Source: a virus (taxonomy: Duplodnaviria > Heunggongvirae > Uroviricota > Caudoviricetes). From it: 10,629 nt of DNA. The first letter of the stretch is position 1. Each line of letters starts with the position of its first letter. The DNA lies in the IMG/VR virus record IMGVR_UViG_2531839127_000027. One strand, written 5' to 3'. A model generated the notes under the pieces. That model had not been told where the DNA came from and did no database searches. It was given only the letters and a program-made list of their open reading frames with translations. The position numbers were made by a program, and so were the translations under genes. This document shows positions 600-10,629 of the stretch, piece by piece.

Positions 600-1013
600 T
601 CAGGCTGGCGGCACACAGCCGCCACCCATCCACTAATACAGAGATCTAACCATGAATACTGGATATTCTCCCGAACAAGGGCGGGGCTTCGTTCGTCCTG
701 AAAAACAGAATCTGCAAAATTTTGCCGAAATTATTCCGGTTATTTCCGGCCTTACTGGCGGGAGTGAAACCAATATTGTTAACGCCAGAGCGTTGCAGAT
801 GTTTGATGATAAAAAGGGAGTAAATTTAACTTACACCCCTGACGGCAATCAGAATATGAGCATTATCTCTGAGTCAGGTTTCTACAAACTAATAAAAACA
901 AAAAGCGCCCCGTTGCCGGAGCGCCTTTGTGAACAATTAACCTACTGCGCAAAAAATGAATCTGAGCAGTGGGATTATATCAACCGTGTGGCGAAGCGCC
1001 ACAATTGCCGGAT

Positions 1014-1048
1014 AACAGGCAAAACAAAGGCCACCCGCTACGGTGGCC
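1014..1048 (-). terminator. Candidate rho-independent terminator on the minus strand
   Basis: Perfect 7-bp stem GGCCACC (1029-1035) / GGTGGCC (1042-1048) with 6-nt loop. On the minus strand it is followed by a T-rich tract (complement of aacaggcaaaacaaa, 1014-1028). Confidence 0.35.
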
Positions 1049-1127
1049 CCTCGACACAAGCTACACGTTATCCCCAACGCATGAGCATCACCAACAATGC
1101 CACATTTGCGGCTGGTGGGCAATGTGA

Positions 1128-1316
1128 TCAGTCAGATTTGGTTCGTTCCAAGGTTTGCAACGAGAGCTTTTTCCTGTGCTCTTTAAGGAATTTCTCAAGA
1201 GCAAAAGCACATGGCGCGAATCTTTCTGATTCATGCTCTATCTTTCTGCGCCGTCTTTTCCGTGCCGGTGATAATGTTTTGGTCAATTCTTTATCGGTCA
1301 TTGTGTTGTCCTGCAT
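1128..1316 (-). CDS. Possible small basic protein (about 57-62 aa), downstream of the repressor candidate on the minus strand
   Basis: ORF MQDNTMTDKELTKTLSPARKRRRRKIEHESERF...; internal Met (MTDKEL) has an AGGA 8 nt upstream. Hydrophilic, plausible composition. No recognisable family. Confidence 0.25.
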   Translation of the reverse strand: MQDNTMTDKELTKTLSPARKRRRRKIEHESERFAPCAFALEKFLKEHRKKLSLQTLERTKSD

Positions 1317-1358
1317 AGCAATGCGCCGTAATACCTTACACCACGGCGCTGATGGTGA

Positions 1359-1664
1359 TTACTCTGGTTCTTTGGTCTTGCGACGCTGGAGTTCTTCGCG
1401 TGCAACGGTGACAAGCTGCCCGATTTCTTCCGCTGCTTTGATGCCGATTTGTTCGACCTTAGCCAGGGCATCCAGTGACGACACAAGGGGATTTTCTCCG
1501 CTGCCTTCTGCTTGGCGGCGGGCTATTTCTCCGCGCATGGCGGTTACGATAAATCCGGCATTGCTTTCGCCGTCCAGCTTAACGGATTCCATCCCTTGCA
1601 TAACATCTAGTGGGACTCTGACAGTTGTCAGTTGTGATTTTGCGTTTTTGTTAGCCGTTGCCAT
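1359..1664 (-). CDS. Putative ribbon-helix-helix (CopG/Arc-like) transcriptional repressor, 101 aa
   Basis: ATG at 1664 preceded on the minus strand by GGAG with 8-nt spacing. N-terminus QLTTVRVPLDVMQGMESVKL...SNAGFIVTAMRGEIARRQ fits a beta-strand/helix/helix RHH pattern. Divergent from the replication operon across an operator-bearing promoter region. Confidence 0.55.
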   Translation of the reverse strand: MATANKNAKSQLTTVRVPLDVMQGMESVKLDGESNAGFIVTAMRGEIARRQAEGSGENPLVSSLDALAKVEQIGIKAAEEIGQLVTVAREELQRRKTKEPE

Positions 1665-1685
1665 TTCTGAAACTCCTAATCATCG

Positions 1686-1763
1686 GTGTGTTTCAGTATA
1701 CACAAAAAAAGAAATACAAAAAGCCTTGACGTGTGTTTCATGCGCTCATAACATGAAACACAC
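1686..1763. promoter_or_regulatory. Operator region: perfect 12-bp inverted repeat GTGTGTTTCATG (1731-1742) / CATGAAACACAC (1752-1763) plus a third half-site GTGTGTTTCA (1686-1695)
   Basis: Read directly. The inverted repeat overlaps the spacer and -10 of the rightward promoter. The third half-site lies 45 bp upstream, next to a TATACT -10-like hexamer on the minus strand (complement of 1695-1700). Confidence 0.55.
1726..1754 (+). promoter_or_regulatory. Candidate sigma70 promoter for the rightward replication operon (TTGACG, 17-bp spacer, TAACAT)
   Basis: TTGACG at 1726-1731 and TAACAT at 1749-1754; about 100 bp upstream of the first operon ORF. Confidence 0.45.
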
Positions 1764-1861
1764 CAAAAGAATTGTTGAAATACAAAGAGCAACGCCCCGC
1801 AGTGCCGGAAACACATACGGGGCGTCTAACCACCAACGATAGCAAGATTATCGAGGCTGCT

Positions 1862-4766: not shown

Positions 4767-4994
4767 CTGTCTACCCTGTCTACCTGGGTAAAGGAAAATA
4801 CATTTAATTCAGTATATTAACTTAGGTAGACAGCCTTTTTTCACTATCTACCTACTATCTACCCTCTCTACCTGATTTTACCTGAATCAGACAGGGAGGT
4901 AGATACGGGGTAGATAGTGGATAAAAGCACTCTACCCCGATGAAAGCCGCGCCATTACTGGCATTGGGGCCAGCAAGGTAGATAAGGTAGACAA
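4767..4994. repeat. Iteron cluster, candidate origin of replication: 11 copies of TCTACC / GGTAGA in both orientations around an AT-rich core (4791-4823)
   Basis: Read directly: TCTACC at 4770, 4779, 4847, 4857, 4867, 4931; GGTAGA at 4825, 4898, 4909, 4977, 4987. Immediately downstream of the primase-helicase gene. Confidence 0.55.
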
Positions 4995-5042: not shown

Positions 5043-5300
5043 ATGCACACATCAGGAAAATTTAACAATCAGAAGAAACCACATAACCGCGCCATTGACC
5101 TTACAGAGCACTGGCTGAGGATGGCGATAAAAATCATCGACCGCAACACGGGAGAGGGATACGCGAAAGCACATCCCGAACTGATAAGCGCATTCATGAC
5201 CACAGCGGCGGCAAACTTTGCCACGCTGACAGATCGGGAGATTGCCGAAGCGGAACAGGTGACAACCATCAACGTTAAAACCGGAGAGCATACAGCATGA
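5043..5300 (+). CDS. Hypothetical protein (85 aa), coupled to the downstream ssb-like gene
   Basis: ATG 5043 follows GAGGGGGG (12-nt spacing); stop overlaps the ssb start (ATGA at 5297-5300). Confidence 0.45.
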   Translation: MHTSGKFNNQKKPHNRAIDLTEHWLRMAIKIIDRNTGEGYAKAHPELISAFMTTAAANFATLTDREIAEAEQVTTINVKTGEHTA

Positions 5301-5719
5301 CAGCACAGATAGCGGCTTACGGGCGGCTGGTGGCTGACCCGCAGTTAAAGACCACCAGCAAGGGCACAACAATGGCGATGGCGAGTATGGCGGTTTCCCT
5401 GCCGTGCAGCCAGGCAGATGACGGAACGGCGACGATGTGGTTATCCGTCCTGGCGTTTGGCAGACAGGCCGACGCACTGGCCAGACACCATAAAGGCGAA
5501 CTGGTGAGCGTGGCGGGTAACATGCAGGTAAGCCAGTGGACAGGCCAGAACGGCGAAACGCGGCAGGGCTGGCAGGTCATCGCAGACAGCGTAATCAGTG
5601 CGAGAACGGCGCGACCGGGCGGCAAAAAAGGCCAGCAGGGCCAGGCTACTGACGCGCTGAACAGGGCAAAACAACAGGCGGGAAATGATGATCCGTACGG
5701 GGATAACATACCGTTTTAA
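5297..5719 (+). CDS. Single-stranded DNA-binding protein homolog (OB fold) with SSB-type C-terminal tip ending IPF, 140 aa
   Basis: By-eye alignment to E. coli SSB: GRLVADPQ / GNLGQDP, WLSVLAFGRQADAL / WHRVVLFGKLAEVA, KGELVSVAGNMQVSQWTGQNGETR / [24 protein letters not shown]. C-terminus DDPYGDNIPF resembles the SSB acidic tail DFDDDIPF. GGAGAG RBS. Confidence 0.75.
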   Translation: MTAQIAAYGRLVADPQLKTTSKGTTMAMASMAVSLPCSQADDGTATMWLSVLAFGRQADALARHHKGELVSVAGNMQVSQWTGQNGETRQGWQVIADSVISARTARPGGKKGQQGQATDALNRAKQQAGNDDPYGDNIPF

Positions 5720-5734
5720 GCAACGAGTGACAGA

Positions 5735-5757
5735 AGCCGGAACAATCCGGCTTTTTT
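5735..5757 (+). terminator. Rho-independent terminator after ssb
   Basis: Stem AGCCGG (5735-5740) / CCGGCT (5747-5752), loop AACAAT, then a T6 run (5752-5757). Confidence 0.6.
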
Positions 5758-5832
5758 ACGGGTCCTCCCGATGGAGTGGCCTTGCCACGGGGCGGGAGCG
5801 GCGCGGAAAAAGGCTGGTTTTTGCATTTTCAT
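5752..5832 (+). repeat. Copy 1 of an 81-bp duplicated segment (77/81 identical to 8288-8368), starting at the terminator T-tract
   Basis: Read directly; contains ACGGGGCGGGAGCGGCGCGG, which resembles the lambda cos-junction sequence ACGGGGCGGCGACCTCGCGG as recalled. Confidence 0.7.
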
Positions 5833-6018
5833 GGCGGCGGCAGCATGTGTGATAATTTATTGATAATTAAAAATTATTTCTGTTTTCACCTGTACAATAT
5901 TTTTTTCTCCATGTCATTAGACCAGTTTGCAATTAATTGAAATATATAAATAAATTTGTTTTTCACCTGCCAGATGGAGTTGCCTGTGCAAAATGTGTTC
6001 AGATGGCGGGATATTTAT

Positions 6019-6041
6019 GCCGGATTCTCTCCGGCTTTTTT
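6019..6041 (+). terminator. Promoter-proximal intrinsic terminator in the leader of the capsid operon
   Basis: Stem GCCGGA (6019-6024) / TCCGGC (6030-6035), loop about 5 nt, then T6 (6036-6041). Lies about 100 bp upstream of the first ORF of the capsid operon. Confidence 0.5.
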
Positions 6042-6143
6042 GTGTCTGAATCTGATCAATCTATTTTTATGATAGAAATATGTTTATCTACCACTTTTAT
6101 CGATCAATAATGCGCGCAGTTTAGTCAGTAAGAGGAAGTTACT

Positions 6144-6353
6144 GTGAATTGTATTAACGACCTGAACACAGGCGAGGTAAAAGGTGGTTCCGTTCATCTG
6201 GATGCGCAGACCGTTATGCGCCTTAAGCAGTACAGGATCGACCACATAAATCATCATCCTGACCAACCATTACCAGGTGTGGCGCAGATTGTCAGACACG
6301 CAGTTAACGCGTGGCTTGATAAGAATGGTTTTGCATCTGGGGGTGAGCAATGA
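6144..6353 (+). CDS. Small protein (69 aa, GTG start), possibly ribbon-helix-helix-like; first gene of the capsid operon
   Basis: GTG 6144 preceded by AAGAGGA with 7-nt spacing. Stop overlaps the capsid gene start (ATGA at 6350-6353). Pattern SVHLDAQTVMRLKQY...AQIVRHAVNAWL is strand-helix-helix-like. Confidence 0.5.
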   Translation: MNCINDLNTGEVKGGSVHLDAQTVMRLKQYRIDHINHHPDQPLPGVAQIVRHAVNAWLDKNGFASGGEQ

Positions 6354-8263
6354 ATCACTGGTACACCATTAAGGCGGCGGGTGTTCGCGGAGCGGCAGAA
6401 ATATCCATCTATGAAGAAATTGGCGGCTTCGGTATCACCGCGAAGCAGTTTGCGGAAGACCTGAAAGCCCTGGGCGATGTCTCACATATCGACCTGCGGA
6501 TCCATTCGCCAGGTGGTGACGTGTTTGAAGGCATCGCCATCTATAACCTGTTACGGAATCATCCGGCAGAAATTACGGTTTATATCGATGGTGTTGCGGC
6601 TTCAATGGCTTCGGTTGTCGCAATGGCTGGCGATCGTGTTGTGATGCCGGAAAACGCCATGATGATGATACATAAGCCGTGGGGTATCTCTGGCGGAAAT
6701 GCTGGTGATATGCGTGATTATGCTGATTTGCTGGATAAGGTGGAAACCGTGTTAGTCCCTGCTTATGCCAGAAAAACGGGCAAATCAGCACAGGAAATTA
6801 CCGCCATGCTGGAAGATGAAACCTGGATGGACGGGAAAGAATGCCTTAAGCACGGTTTTGCTGATGAATTGTTGCCATCTGTCACAGCAATGGCGCGAAT
6901 TGAATCGAAACGCACAGGAGATTTTTCACACATGCCGGAAACCATTAAAGGAATGATTACCCCGCCACAGGGAGCAGCCAATATTGCTGGTAATGAACAG
7001 AAGCGCATCAACGGAATAAGTGAAGTGTTTAGCCTGTTCGGCAGTCGTTACGACGGGATCAAAATGGCGTGCCTGGAAGATGCATCATGTACACCGGAGA
7101 TGGCCCGTGAAAAGTTGTTGAACGAGATGGGGCGCGAGTCCACGCCATCCAATAAAAATACCCCGGCTCATATTTATGCCGGTAACGGGAACATAACAGG
7201 CGATGCAATTCGTCAGGGGCTTTATTCCCGTCTCGGGTATGAACGCCCAGAGCGGGGAAATCCTTACGCGATGATGAGCCTTTTTGAAATGGCCCAGGCA
7301 TCACTAACGGATCGTGGTATCAGTGTTGGCGGTTTTTTAAATCGCTCGCAGGTCGTTAATGCAGCTTTCACACACAGCAGCAGCGATTTTTCTCACATTC
7401 TGGCTGGTGGTGCTGAAAAATCAGTACTGAAAGGCTGGCAGGACAGCGGCGAAACGTTCCAGAAATGGACGCGTACCGGATCGCTTTCAAACTTTCATGA
7501 AGCAAAGCGCGTTGGTCTGAATGGTTTTTCAAAGCTGGATAAAGTACCGGAAGGTGCGGAATATAAATACATCACCACCAGCGATAAAGGTGTACCTATT
7601 GCGCTGGCCACATACGGTAATATTTTTTCTGTTACCCGTCAGGCCATTATCAACGATGACCTGACCCAGTTAACTACAATCCCCATGGCGATGGGGCGTG
7701 CGGCCGCCAGAACAGTAGGTAATCTGGTTTATCTTCTGTTAACCAGCAACGGCAAATTTACGGATAGTAAAGCGTTATTCCATGCCGATCATAAAAATCT
7801 TATTGCGAAGGATATGGACATGGAGGGGCTTAACGAAGCCCGTAAGCTGATGCGACTACAGGAGGATGCCAACGGCGACTCCCTGAATATTACCCCCGCA
7901 TTTGTCCTGGCCCCCGCCGCGCTGGAGTCTGCCGCACATCGCGCCATTCTGTCATCGTCATCACTCTTTCCGGTTGATGGTGATGGCACTATCAATCAGA
8001 ACCCCGGTATCATTAACGTGGTGAAAGATATGGCTGAGGTTATTGTTGAGCCACGTCTTGATAAGAACAATAACAAGGAGTGGTATGTAGCCGCAGCGAA
8101 AGGGATGGACACGATAGAGGTCGCTTATCTTGATGGTATTGATACGCCATATCTTGAGGAGCAGGTGGGCTTTACTGTTGATGGTGTCGCCTGGAAGGTG
8201 CGCATAGATGCAGGTGTCGCGGCCCTCGATTATCGTGGACTACTGAAATCGAACGGAGCATGA
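6350..8263 (+). CDS. Fusion polyprotein: N-terminal ClpP-like (S14-type) prohead protease domain, linker/scaffold-like region, C-terminal HK97-fold major capsid protein; 637 aa
   Basis: N-terminal region carries ClpP catalytic-site motifs GVAASMAS (ClpP GQAASMG) and MIHKP (ClpP MIHQP). C-terminal about 330 aa has capsid-like features (FSVTRQAIINDD, TIEVAYLDG, GLLKS). GGGGTGAG RBS. Confidence 0.85.
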   Translation: MNHWYTIKAAGVRGAAEISIYEEIGGFGITAKQFAEDLKALGDVSHIDLRIHSPGGDVFEGIAIYNLLRNHPAEITVYIDGVAASMASVVAMAGDRVVMPENAMMMIHKPWGISGGNAGDMRDYADLLDKVETVLVPAYARKTGKSAQEITAMLEDETWMDGKECLKHGFADELLPSVTAMARIESKRTGDFSHMPETIKGMITPPQGAANIAGNEQKRINGISEVFSLFGSRYDGIKMACLEDASCTPEMAREKLLNEMGRESTPSNKNTPAHIYAGNGNITGDAIRQGLYSRLGYERPERGNPYAMMSLFEMAQASLTDRGISVGGFLNRSQVVNAAFTHSSSDFSHILAGGAEKSVLKGWQDSGETFQKWTRTGSLSNFHEAKRVGLNGFSKLDKVPEGAEYKYITTSDKGVPIALATYGNIFSVTRQAIINDDLTQLTTIPMAMGRAAARTVGNLVYLLLTSNGKFTDSKALFHADHKNLIAKDMDMEGLNEARKLMRLQEDANGDSLNITPAFVLAPAALESAAHRAILSSSSLFPVDGDGTINQNPGIINVVKDMAEVIVEPRLDKNNNKEWYVAAAKGMDTIEVAYLDGIDTPYLEEQVGFTVDGVAWKVRIDAGVAALDYRGLLKSNGA

Positions 8264-8269
8264 CAACAA

Positions 8270-8293
8270 GGGCGGCGACAGCCGCCTTTTTTT
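8270..8293 (+). terminator. Hairpin plus T7 tract after the capsid gene; stem sequence matches lambda cosN as recalled
   Basis: GGGCGGCGAC at 8270-8279 matches the first 10 nt of the lambda cosN overhang GGGCGGCGACCT (from memory). Stem GGCGGC (8271-8276) / GCCGCC (8281-8286), loop GACA, T7 at 8287-8293. Confidence 0.5.
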
Positions 8294-8368
8294 ACGGGTC
8301 CTCCCGGTGTGGTGTCCTTGCCACGGGGCGGGAGCGGCGCGGAAAAAGGCTGGTTTTTGCATTTTCAT
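8288..8368 (+). repeat. Copy 2 of the 81-bp duplicated segment (see 5752-5832)
   Basis: 77/81 identity; all four mismatches fall in one 9-mer (ATGGAGTGG vs GTGTGGTGT). Confidence 0.7.
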
Positions 8369-8521
8369 TCGTCATCATCATCTTTCTATCATATTGAATA
8401 TTAAGTGTTTTTATTTTTGGTATGTTAATTTCGCTTATTTTGTGTTCAACATACAGCGCGTTTTTTGACCTTTTTTGAAAGATATTTGCAAGATGCATGT
8501 TTAAAACATTCTGGAGCGGGT

Positions 8522-9007
8522 ATGGATCGGGAACTGAAAAATCTGATGCTGAACATTAACCAGCTGGCGGCGATAGCGGGAATATGTCGCCAGACTGCGG
8601 CGGCAAGGCTGAAAAATATCCAGCCAGCCGGAGGACATGACAAGCTGAAACTCTATCGGGTGACTGACATTCTGACCTGTTTTCTTGATCTTCCCGTTCC
8701 GGCATCACTGGAAGAAATGGAGCCACACGACCGTAAGGCCTGGTATCAGTCCGAACGTGAGCGCCTCAAGTTCGAACAGGAAACGGCGCAACTCATACCC
8801 GCCGATGATGTGCGAAAAGAGATGGCTATATGGGGAGAAATCGTAAGCGAGGAACTGGAAAAACTCCCCAGTATTCTGGCACGTGATGCTGGGCTTAAAC
8901 CGATGGCAGTAAACAGAGTGCAGTCAATTATTGACGATTTGTGTAATCAGATTATCAGCCGGATGGTGAAAAATGACGTAGTGAATGAGGTCGCAAAACA
9001 GGCATGA
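8522..9007 (+). CDS. Nu1-like terminase small subunit homolog (161 aa); candidate packaging-specificity or packaging-redirecting protein
   Basis: ATG 8522 preceded by GGAG with 5-nt spacing. N-terminus LNINQLAAIAGICRQTAAARLKN resembles the lambda Nu1 HTH region (KKQLADIFGASIRTIQNWQ) as recalled. Sits directly downstream of the cos-like region. The listed ORF starts at a TTG at 8465 without an RBS. Confidence 0.7.
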   Translation: MDRELKNLMLNINQLAAIAGICRQTAAARLKNIQPAGGHDKLKLYRVTDILTCFLDLPVPASLEEMEPHDRKAWYQSERERLKFEQETAQLIPADDVRKEMAIWGEIVSEELEKLPSILARDAGLKPMAVNRVQSIIDDLCNQIISRMVKNDVVNEVAKQA

Positions 9008-9291
9008 TAATGACCGAATCTGAAATACTGCGATTAATCCGCCGTGCTGGTGGAATCAGCCAGCTGGCTGACGAACATGCCAAGCAGCCGGATACAGTCA
9101 CCGCTGAAAATTACGCGCGTGTGGTGGCTGAGGTGATGCACCGTGACGGTATTGAGTTTAACGGCGTGGATATGCGCAATATACGCACCAGAGTTCTGGA
9201 GATGTTGTCATACCGTCGCCGCGTGCAGATGTACCAGGAGAAAGAAAAAATTACGTACCGGTGGAAGAAGCCGGAGCGGTTACGACGTTAA
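9004..9291 (+). CDS. Hypothetical protein (95 aa), translationally coupled to the terS-like gene
   Basis: ATG 9004 overlaps the terS stop (ATGA); alternative ATG at 9010. Hydrophilic, basic C-terminus. No family recognised. Confidence 0.45.
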   Translation: MIMTESEILRLIRRAGGISQLADEHAKQPDTVTAENYARVVAEVMHRDGIEFNGVDMRNIRTRVLEMLSYRRRVQMYQEKEKITYRWKKPERLRR

Positions 9292-9332: not shown

Positions 9333-9823
9333 AAAAAAGACGGTATTTAAATCGGGTGGTGTTTAATACCCCCAGGGGGATAGAAATCCCTACACCTCAT
9401 TGCTTATGGGACCGCCCGCCTACCCTTGTTCACATCGCCGCAGGTTCGAAAACTTTTTTTGGGAAGGTGTGCACGGGATTGATAGATGAGGTCTATCTAT
9501 AAAAAATCACAAAATCCGCGCCATTGCTGGATCCGCCAAAAATCCCCCACCTTACGGCAGACAAAGAAAACGCGAATTATGGGCCTGTTGCAGAGAAAAA
9601 AGGTCTCACTAGTTTTGCGCACCCTAGCATCGAGGTTCGTCAGCCTCCCATCAGCAACCAGATAACTAATCTCGCTGGTGGGCATGATGCCGATATGGGG
9701 ACTTCCATAACGGTTTATCCGTGATCATCCACCAGCTTCATGGCGGATAGCCGGAAAATGATAACGGTATAGCCCGTCGCTTGTGTCTATTTGTTCCGCA
9801 TTGTTGCATACAGTGCACCGAAC

Positions 9824-9847
9824 GGTGTAGTTAATGGTGTAGTTAAT
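9824..9847. repeat. Perfect tandem duplication of the 12-mer GGTGTAGTTAAT in the region upstream of the Smr gene
   Basis: Read directly (9824-9835 and 9836-9847). Confidence 0.4.
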
Positions 9848-10065
9848 TTGCGATTTTTAACGTTATTTGCAGCGATATTTGTTGGTTAAATTCAATAAGT
9901 TATGCGCATTTAATTATAAATATCGTGAATGAATAATCATGCATAAGCATTTTGCTTAAAATATCGGCAATATTTGGAACTTATTACTGGAATTTTGGGT
10001 AATACGTTGTTGGACCGACCCGGTCTGGTTATCATATCGCGCTCTTAATTGCGGGAGGATGTAAC

Positions 10066-10629
10066 ATGAACCTTGACGACAAATCGCTGTTTCTTGACGC
10101 CATGGAAGATGTCCAGCCGCTGAAACGTGCTACCGATGTCCACTGGCATCCAACGCGTAACCAACGTGCGCCGCAGCGTATCGACACGCTGCAGCTTGAT
10201 AATTTCCTCACCACCGGATTTCTCGACATCATCCCACTAAGTCAGCCGCTGGAGTTTCGGCGGGAAGGGTTGCAACATGGGGTGCTGGATAAGCTGCGCA
10301 GTGATAAATATCCGCAACAGGCGAGCCTGAATCTTTTGCGCCAGCCGGTGGAAGAGTGCCGCAAAATGATGTTCAGTTTCATTCAACAAGCCATGGCTGA
10401 TGGTTTGCGTAACGTGCTGATTATTCATGGCAAAGGACGGGATGATAAATCGCATGCCAATATTGTCCGCAGCTATGTGGCGCGCTGGCTGACCGAATTT
10501 GATGATGTTCAGGCATATTGCACTGCGCTACCGCATCATGGCGGCAGCGGGGCGTGTTACGTCGCACTACGTAAAACGGCGCAGGCGAAGCAAGAAAACT
10601 GGGAGCGCCACGCTAAGCGCAGTCGTTGA
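10066..10629 (+). CDS. smrA: Smr-domain protein (small MutS-related endonuclease family), 187 aa; likely host smrA (ydaL)
   Basis: Smr signature LIIHGKGRDDKS...RSYVARWL; GGGAGGA RBS 6 nt before the ATG; stop codon is the last 3 nt of the window. Assignment to smrA rather than smrB is from memory. Confidence 0.7.
   Translation: MNLDDKSLFLDAMEDVQPLKRATDVHWHPTRNQRAPQRIDTLQLDNFLTTGFLDIIPLSQPLEFRREGLQHGVLDKLRSDKYPQQASLNLLRQPVEECRKMMFSFIQQAMADGLRNVLIIHGKGRDDKSHANIVRSYVARWLTEFDDVQAYCTALPHHGGSGACYVALRKTAQAKQENWERHAKRSR

Follow-up and report, generated by a model that had tools for sequence, protein, structure and literature searches.

The DNA analysed here, a stretch of 10,629 nt from IMG/VR virus record IMGVR_UViG_2531839127_000027 that we refer to as the window, contains an 81-nt segment that occurs twice in direct orientation, and it is the nature of this duplication that is addressed below. 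The window is 99.9% identical to a segment of 15 complete Escherichia coli genomes, and in CRE444 the copy lies between abgR and smrA. Flanking 26-bp att direct repeats (the right copy at 9823–9848, the left copy 11,055 bp upstream and outside the window) set the length of the island at 11,055 bp. Its genes encode an integrase, AlpA, an Icd-like protein, a DUF4222 protein, a D5/DUF5906 primase, Ssb, a fusion of ClpP-like protease and major capsid protein (MCP) and a DUF1441 protein, and there is in addition a small unnamed gene. This is the layout of the Gram-negative cos-type phage-inducible chromosomal islands (PICIs), which fall in a 10–15 kb class, are bounded by att repeats and run from int through alpA and primase to packaging and capsid genes; judged by its sequence, the window is a PICI-type phage satellite.

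The two copies of the repeat lie at 5752–5832 and 8288–8368, in both cases in an intergenic position and on the plus strand. Copy 1 follows ssb (5297–5719, plus strand), the last gene before it, and is located 518 bp upstream of the gene for the 637 aa fusion of prohead protease and MCP (6350–8263, plus strand), the product of which shows 57% amino acid identity to gp05 of phage cdtI. Copy 2 follows this capsid gene and is located 154 bp upstream of the true start (8522) of the DUF1441 terS-like gene. As read directly from the sequence, the first nucleotides of each copy form the T-tract of a different G+C hairpin. The first is a terminator-like hairpin after the ssb stop codon (GCCGGA-ACAA-TCCGGC, 5736–5751, followed by six T residues; 5736–5757, plus strand), whose T-tract supplies the first 6 nt of copy 1, and the second is a similar structure after the stop codon of the capsid gene (GGCGGC-GACA-GCCGCC, 8271–8286, followed by seven T residues; 8271–8293, plus strand), whose T-tract overlaps the start of copy 2. 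A repeat search of the window, along with direct reading, confirmed these T-tract starts and the extent of the duplication as an earlier note on this DNA had given them, with identity at 77 of the 81 positions (95%) and all four mismatches confined to one 9-mer (repeat positions 20, 23, 24 and 28; window 5771–5779 and 8307–8315). This pair is by far the longest and best repeat of the window, the runner-up being 39 nt in length with 74% identity, and the sequence ACGGGGCGGGAGCGGCGCGG is present in both copies. The two sites have the same orientation and, on a circular or concatemeric form of the island, are 2,536 bp apart in one direction and 8,519 bp apart in the other.

Comparison with phage lambda identified the repeat as the core of a cos site. 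Aligned by way of the lambda ends, the lambda sequence runs TTTACGGGTCCT-23 bp-ACG/GGGCGGCGACCT/CGCGG (slashes mark the nicks), and in both copies the window runs TTTACGGGTCCT-23 bp-ACG/GGGCGGGAGCGG/CGCGG. The window thus agrees with lambda in the 7-bp cosQ, the spacing, cohesive-end bp 1–6 and the CG pair at either nick, and the cohesive ends are mismatched at bp 7–9, 11 and 12. This is exactly the pattern described by Feiss and co-workers for natural variation in lambda-like phages, in which cosQ and bp 1–6 are conserved and bp 7–12 are free (PMC4669245). In each copy the cosQ heptamer GGGTCCT (5760–5766 and 8296–8302) is separated from the predicted nick by 23 bp, the lambda distance (22 bp in cdtI), and is followed by a predicted 12-nt cohesive end, GGGCGGGAGCGG, at 5790–5801 in copy 1 and 8326–8337 in copy 2, with left half GGGCGG and with CG flanking both nicks. 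The predicted cohesive ends of the two cores are identical. Beyond them an I2-like spacer extends to bp +43, and from bp +44 onwards, with the start of the cosB region bound by the small terminase (TerS), the copies no longer match. In lambda, I2 precedes R3, the first TerS-binding site of cosB, which lies at bp 50–65 (PMC9026076; PMC4669245). As the repeat ends at bp +43, before the position of R3, it corresponds to the TerS-independent part of cos, with each copy carrying its own cosB. On this alignment the repeat is cosQ, cosN and I2, i.e. the part of cos predicted to be read by the large terminase (TerL), and the four mismatches between the copies sit in the spacer between cosQ and cosN, a spacer which also varies among phages and other islands.

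The same core is widespread, so that the similarity between the copies is not peculiar to the island of the window. Homologues with 80–100% identity were found in 2,546 of 5,426 complete E. coli genomes, in a search that gives one place per genome record, and in 34 lambdoid phage records; every match in the genome search fell in unannotated DNA. In the phages the core is located between the lysis cassette and a DUF1441 terS gene, which is followed by terL. In the deposited records of cdtI and Tritos, position 1 is the homologous first G (GGGCGGGAGCGT), exactly at the predicted nick, and the cdtI record ends in CCACG. The assembly of mEp460_4F5, a derivative of mEp460, breaks 5 nt upstream of the homologous nick site. 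We had also considered the start of the mEp460 record itself as evidence of this kind and dropped it, as that record simply begins at the terS ATG; the cdtI and Tritos records are the informative ones.

The two cores are embedded in different cosB regions, and the predicted cos sites, which we call cos1 (copy 1) and cos2 (copy 2), differ in their surroundings accordingly. After copy 1, a stretch of 165 bp (5833–5997) is 92% identical to bp 44–208 of cdtI, Tritos and HannyBb and spans the whole of the cdtI cosB together with the first eight codons of terS. The cosB of cos1 (5833–5973, plus strand; bp +44 to +184) is thus of the phage cdtI type, with an A/T-rich segment and two direct TTTTCACCTG repeats (5883–5892 and 5960–5969). 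The terS gene that would follow is cut to a stub of eight codons (5974–5997, plus strand) encoding MELPVQNV, compared with MELLMSNV in cdtI; phage homology stops at this point, and the frame closes after 32 codons. A terminator-like hairpin, GCCGGATTCTCTCCGGC followed by six T residues (6019–6041, plus strand), lies directly past the stub. Matches of cos1 to prophages reach about 90–92% identity. Among satellites, the EJN001 island shares this cdtI-type cosB with the window at 95% identity, the FDAARGOS_1372 and UTME-8 islands have it in near-identical form, and the islands which share it differ in integrase and in chromosomal site (abgR/smrA, cspD/clpS and a prophage terL). From its sequence, cos1 looks like the copy of a phage site, namely a complete cdtI-type cos that was captured with its terS reduced to eight codons.

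At cos2 the arrangement is complete up to and including a terS gene. In lambda-type cos sites generally, TerS-binding repeats and an A/T-rich bend site make up the cosB that separates cosN from terS, and the start of terS is expected near bp 185–200. The cosB of cos2 (8369–8521, plus strand) is related to the mEp460/PhiR40_1 type, with 67–73% identity to phage cosB and 98% to the corresponding region of other islands. It contains a lambda-I1-like A/T segment, AAGTGTTTTTATTTTT, and an imperfect inverted repeat, GTATGTTAA (8420–8428) and TTCAACATAC (8445–8454), the arms of which are candidate TerS sites. The gene that follows (8522–9007, plus strand) encodes the island TerS, a DUF1441 protein of 161 aa (Pfam 6.4e-36; phrog_141), and its ATG lies at bp +197 from the predicted cos2 nick, compared with +191 for lambda Nu1. 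The island TerS is 71% identical to that of PhiR40_1 over its full length and resembles that of cdtI in the C-terminal half only; by analogy with lambda TerS, binding of TerL is expected of the C-terminal half and binding of DNA of the N-terminal half (PMC9026076). The cosB of cos2 and TerS co-vary, their respective identities to the window rising together from cdtI (55% and 27%) through PhiR40_1 (67% and 67%) and the EJN001 prophage (73% and 63%) to the EJN001 island (98% and 100%). The nearest prophage matches to cos2 and the 5′ part of terS are only about 76–78% identical, as against the 90–92% found for cos1. Judging from this, cos2 and its TerS seem to be private to the satellite, with cos1 as the phage copy. 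What follows cos2 is a full-length DUF1441 terS rather than a gene of the Rpp subtype, and comparison of the window TerS with solved structures gave no match to RppC. Coupled to terS is a gene for a conserved 95 aa protein (9004–9291, plus strand) assigned to phrog_1561, a group of unknown function; no Pfam family and no relative among solved structures was found for it. Islands without terS have an unnamed 282-nt gene in its place, directly after cos2 (9828–10109 in island L099; 9825–10106 in island L101). If this gene and that of the 95 aa protein are homologous, the 95 aa protein is a candidate for a packaging-specificity or interference factor.

The distribution of the two sites was examined in the complete E. 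coli genomes, in a sample comprising the window and eight other E. coli islands and in seven satellites from other genera. The capsid–cos2–terS module occurs in about 187 of the 5,426 genomes and the ssb–cos1 region in about 155, roughly 30 genomes having the former alone. Seven of the eight other E. coli islands, or eight of nine with the window, have a pair of cos sites around the capsid genes, the first of them behind ssb and the second behind the capsid genes; the remaining one (L094) has cos2 only, with a HEPN gene replacing ssb. The seven satellites of other genera (Trabulsiella, Yersinia, Buttiauxella, Phytobacter, Kluyvera, Moellerella and Rahnella), the capsid proteins of which are 70–79% identical to that of the window, all have a single cos core, located just downstream of the capsid gene, i.e. 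in the cos2 position. In prophages the core lies about 4.4 kb upstream of the capsid gene. The cos types of the sampled islands differ, and the phage lineage that each resembles is a different one: identity is 91% to phages 1720a-02 and CP-1639 for one type and 84% to Stx/VT1-Sakai phages for another, and in island L100 a lambda-type cosQ/cosN core stands before an Rpp gene (146 aa), the product of which does match RppC (E = 3e-31). Moreover, the same cos type is found at position 1 in some islands and at position 2 in others, and four of the eight two-cos islands have a pair of cohesive ends that do not match in sequence or length. Across cos types (L096, L099, L100 and L101) the distance from ACG/GGGCGG to CGCGG varies from 10 to 12 nt, so that the lineages may not share one cohesive-end length or nick position. 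The two sites of an island often differ in this distance.

The similarity of the two cores within an island mostly reflects general conservation of the core. Concerted evolution of the cores within islands was considered and found to have weak support, the observed within-island identity being reached in 6 of 120 pairings when five islands were compared and in 1.9% of random pairings with eight. An extra T common to both copies in the window and in island L096 is suggestive only.

Some of the related satellites lie within prophages. The EJN001 satellite (NZ_CP086338.1; L095 1–807 and 11405–12526) is inserted in a prophage terL, which is annotated as N- and C-terminal pseudogenes, and the prophage has its own mEp460-type cos and DUF1441 terS just upstream of the inserted satellite. 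The Kluyvera and Rahnella satellites are flanked by prophage-type protease/capsid fragments with 53–71% identity (L053 5–256 and 11212–12861; L090 1651–1968), with an N-terminal capsid fragment just before the satellite integrase, and appear to have integrated into a prophage capsid gene. The otherwise collinear island of E. coli UTME-8 contains, past its capsid gene and ahead of cos2 (L098 9595–10295), a tail-protein fragment together with a tail-assembly gene, and other phage structural genes can therefore enter the region between the cos sites.

Our interpretation is that the duplicated segment is, with high probability, the core of two lambda-type cos sites that carry different cosB regions within an 11,055-bp satellite and that would together give it access to the packaging machinery of two kinds of helper phage. 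A second cos-like site and a decoy packaging site had both been put forward in the earlier note as possible functions of the repeat; the former is borne out, both copies being cos cores with complete cosB regions of their own, and for the same reason neither copy can be viewed as a decoy placed beside one real site. From the anatomy, the homologies and the distribution we infer where cutting would occur, which protein would read which cosB and what benefit two sites might bring. In our working model, cos2 (cut at 8326–8337) would be the main initiation site, at which the island TerS would recruit the TerL of the helper, and cos1 (cut at 5790–5801) would be read by the native TerS of a cdtI-type helper, providing a second route into the packaging machinery. 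Either cos would also be expected to end a packaging run begun at the other, and such products could still circularise because both cores have the same cohesive end. A broader proposal, which we put forward tentatively and regard as somewhat less than an even prospect, is that selection has favoured, in E. coli PICIs, a design with a cos on either side of the capsid module. One of the two would be a faithful copy of the complete cos of a circulating helper lineage, read by the TerS of that helper, and the other a private cos for the island TerS or Rpp, with types being swapped between the two positions as helpers change. Were this so, the second site would also provide more closely spaced termination points when multimers are packaged. 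By a speculative piece of arithmetic, four units amount to 44.2 kb, close to the 44.5 kb of an mEp460-type genome, and four units plus 2.5 kb to 46.8 kb, close to the 47.0 kb of cdtI.

In weighing the dual-helper interpretation, the closest published case is the E. coli PICI EcCICFT073, which has two cos sites. Each of these gives transfer when placed on a plasmid, and deletion of both abolishes transfer; transfer by lambda and phi80 depends on the site read by the Rpp–TerS complex, and why some PICIs have two cos sites is a question that its authors raise (PMC6092414; PMC6739421). Several observations weigh against our interpretation. Deletion from EcCICFT073 of the cos not required for lambda or phi80 transfer raised transfer by lambda (PMC6092414), indicating that, with certain helpers, carrying a second cos may make no difference or be a burden. 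The one prophage examined beside an island of this kind, that of EJN001, has an mEp460-type cos and not one of the cdtI type. The record starts of cdtI and Tritos are taken as deposited and may have been set by analogy with lambda. Lastly, cos1 is missing from the seven satellites of other genera and from E. coli island L094. The earlier note had held that related islands lacking one copy would speak against a function of the repeat, and for copy 1 such islands do exist, so that it is dispensable for the family as a whole, yet eight of the nine E. coli islands have a cos in that place.

The same absences would be accounted for if cos1 were a passenger, that is, an intact but unselected scar of recombination with a cdtI-like phage that brought in or rearranged the ssb/capsid region, with cos2 as the only site that matters. 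This is the alternative that survives best, although we consider it unlikely. The truncated terS stub adjoining cos1 and the constant linkage of cos1 to the ssb module are consistent with it, as is the finding that EcCICFT073 transfer was not reduced by loss of the cos that lambda and phi80 do not require (PMC6092414). Against it, cosQ, cosN and cosB of cos1 are all intact and have been kept across islands with different integrases and chromosomal sites, and other islands have a different but complete phage-type cos at the same position, which argues for repeated replacement rather than decay. Moreover, each of the EcCICFT073 sites works when cloned (PMC6092414; PMC6739421).

It is less likely still that the pair serves mainly in terminase-mediated exchange or excision of a cassette, by which cutting at both sites would split the island into a backbone of 8.5 kb and a capsid cassette of 2.5 kb whose cohesive ends match, so that capsid modules could be traded between islands and phages. 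A capsid module does lie between the sites in all eight two-cos islands and varies from one to another (mostly a protease–MCP fusion; in L100, separate genes for the major capsid protein and for head decoration), the point at which islands cease to be homologous lies close to the end of the cos1 core, the two cohesive ends of the window are identical, and cos types have moved between the two positions. The cohesive ends differ, however, in half of these eight islands, which would make for poor cross-joining, breakpoints at a conserved core are also expected from ordinary homologous recombination, and a product devoid of the capsid gene would be a loss for the island. Excision of the capsid cassette, which the earlier note had raised, and its exchange may nevertheless arise as by-products of having two direct cos sites.

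That the repeat is instead a transcriptional or RNA element (an operator, leader RNA or small RNA) or a minus-strand small protein common to two operons is, in our view, hardly credible, for although it is intergenic, lies past terminators and before operons, can form a G+C stem and has a minus-strand ATG starting exactly at the last base of each copy, every conserved block is explained by cosQ, cosN and I2. The idea of a shared regulatory site, also raised in the earlier note, was not upheld. A promoter scan revealed no promoter-like site in or beside the cores, although the same scan also missed two evident plus-strand hairpins; an Rfam scan of the whole window at E ≤ 1 returned nothing at the repeats; and RNA folding of both copies on both strands was unremarkable (z-scores −0.8 to −1.7). 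The minus-strand small protein was rejected, as in phage cdtI a stop interrupts its frame at the fourth codon.

The remaining features of the island are less directly related to the cos sites. The first gene of the segment that they bracket is a conserved open reading frame (ORF) of 69 aa (6144–6353, plus strand), the stop codon of which overlaps the start of the capsid gene (ATGA). No Pfam family was found for it, and homologues with 32–91% amino acid identity occur in the same position, before the first structural gene, in islands L093, L096, L100 and L101, of which L093 is without a capsid gene. In CRE444, RefSeq annotates a minus-strand ORF at about 6083–6256 instead; it is the plus-strand 69 aa gene, and not this minus-strand ORF, that seems real. 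At 2280–2287 the window has eight G residues where CRE444 has seven, the sole indel between the two, and this divides a 465-nt hypothetical gene (CRE444 8058–8522) into ORFs at 2058–2297 and 2263–2523; it is a homopolymer frameshift or a sequencing error. A 396 aa open frame at 652–1842 (plus strand), absent from RefSeq, has no Pfam match and shows weak matches of about 30 residues to anti-repressor (Ant) PHROGs. It overlaps the annotated YlcI/YnfO gene at 1359–1664 (minus strand), and related islands have BRO-N fragments annotated there. Just 3′ of the primase gene, at 4825–4936, lies a 39-nt imperfect inverted repeat with iterated GGTAGATAG and CTATCTACC units, which is probably the replication origin. 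PICI origins are located immediately 3′ of the initiator gene (PMC6092414). The Rfam scan gave weak microRNA-like matches at this palindrome, owing to its inverted repeat, and a chance match to a long non-coding RNA.

The structural genes of the island were also compared with those of the capsid-forming PICIs, which reportedly (Alqurainy and colleagues, 2023) encode their own capsid, protease, portal, connectors, TerS and TerL/HNH, so that the helper supplies only tails. The island of the window has the protease–MCP fusion and TerS only, and no portal gene or terL was found among the ORFs and annotation of the 11-kb island.

Among known cos sites, that of lambda shares with both sites of the window the cosQ heptamer, the 23-bp spacing, cohesive-end bp 1–6 and the flanking CG pairs, along with a comparable I2 and a terS ATG at about bp 190. 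It differs at cohesive-end bp 7–9, 11 and 12; furthermore, the cosB regions of the window are unrelated to the lambda R sites, and the island TerS is a DUF1441 protein and not Nu1. In the cdtI/Tritos/HannyBb group, cdtI and Tritos match cos1 at about 90–92% identity over the stretch that begins with the core and ends at bp 208. With the phages of the mEp460/PhiR40_1 group cos2 shares its architecture, and their TerS proteins are 67–71% identical to that of the island. Phages of both the cdtI and the mEp460 groups have a single cos, located after the lysis genes and before terS–terL–portal, whereas in the island cos1 has lost its terS and cos2 follows the capsid gene. Satellites packaged via a copied helper cos are also represented by SaPIbov5, which carries a helper cos, and SaPIbov4, with two putative cos sites, in so far as these are cited in PMC6092414; the Staphylococcus aureus pathogenicity islands are set apart by their description, as Gram-positive elements with unrelated sequences and different terminase families.

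EcCICFT073 has the same type of PICI backbone and, like the window, two lambda-like cosQ/cosN cores with different cosB regions. Island L100, of the Rpp type and with the layout ssb–cos–capsid genes–cos–packaging-specificity gene, is EcCICFT073-like. The window departs from EcCICFT073 in that its specificity-side cos is followed by a full-length DUF1441 TerS instead of Rpp, its cargo between the sites is a protease–MCP fusion rather than the putative capsid and head-decoration genes c1499 and c1500, and its two cores differ very little and share one cohesive end. Furthermore, no phage cosB was found in EcCICFT073 by its authors, whereas cos1 of the window has a recognisable cdtI cosB and terS stub. 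The two-cos oddity of EcCICFT073 thus recurs across PICIs with different capsid and specificity modules, and since one site of the window can be traced to a named phage lineage, cdtI, the question of why there are two becomes directly testable, with a dual-helper explanation suggested. With this analysis, packaging signals can be assigned in a common E. coli satellite family, and coordinates are supplied for cos cores where annotation pipelines leave blanks. The possession of two cos sites is a feature already published for the sister island EcCICFT073, and the window presents the same feature with a full TerS in place of Rpp.

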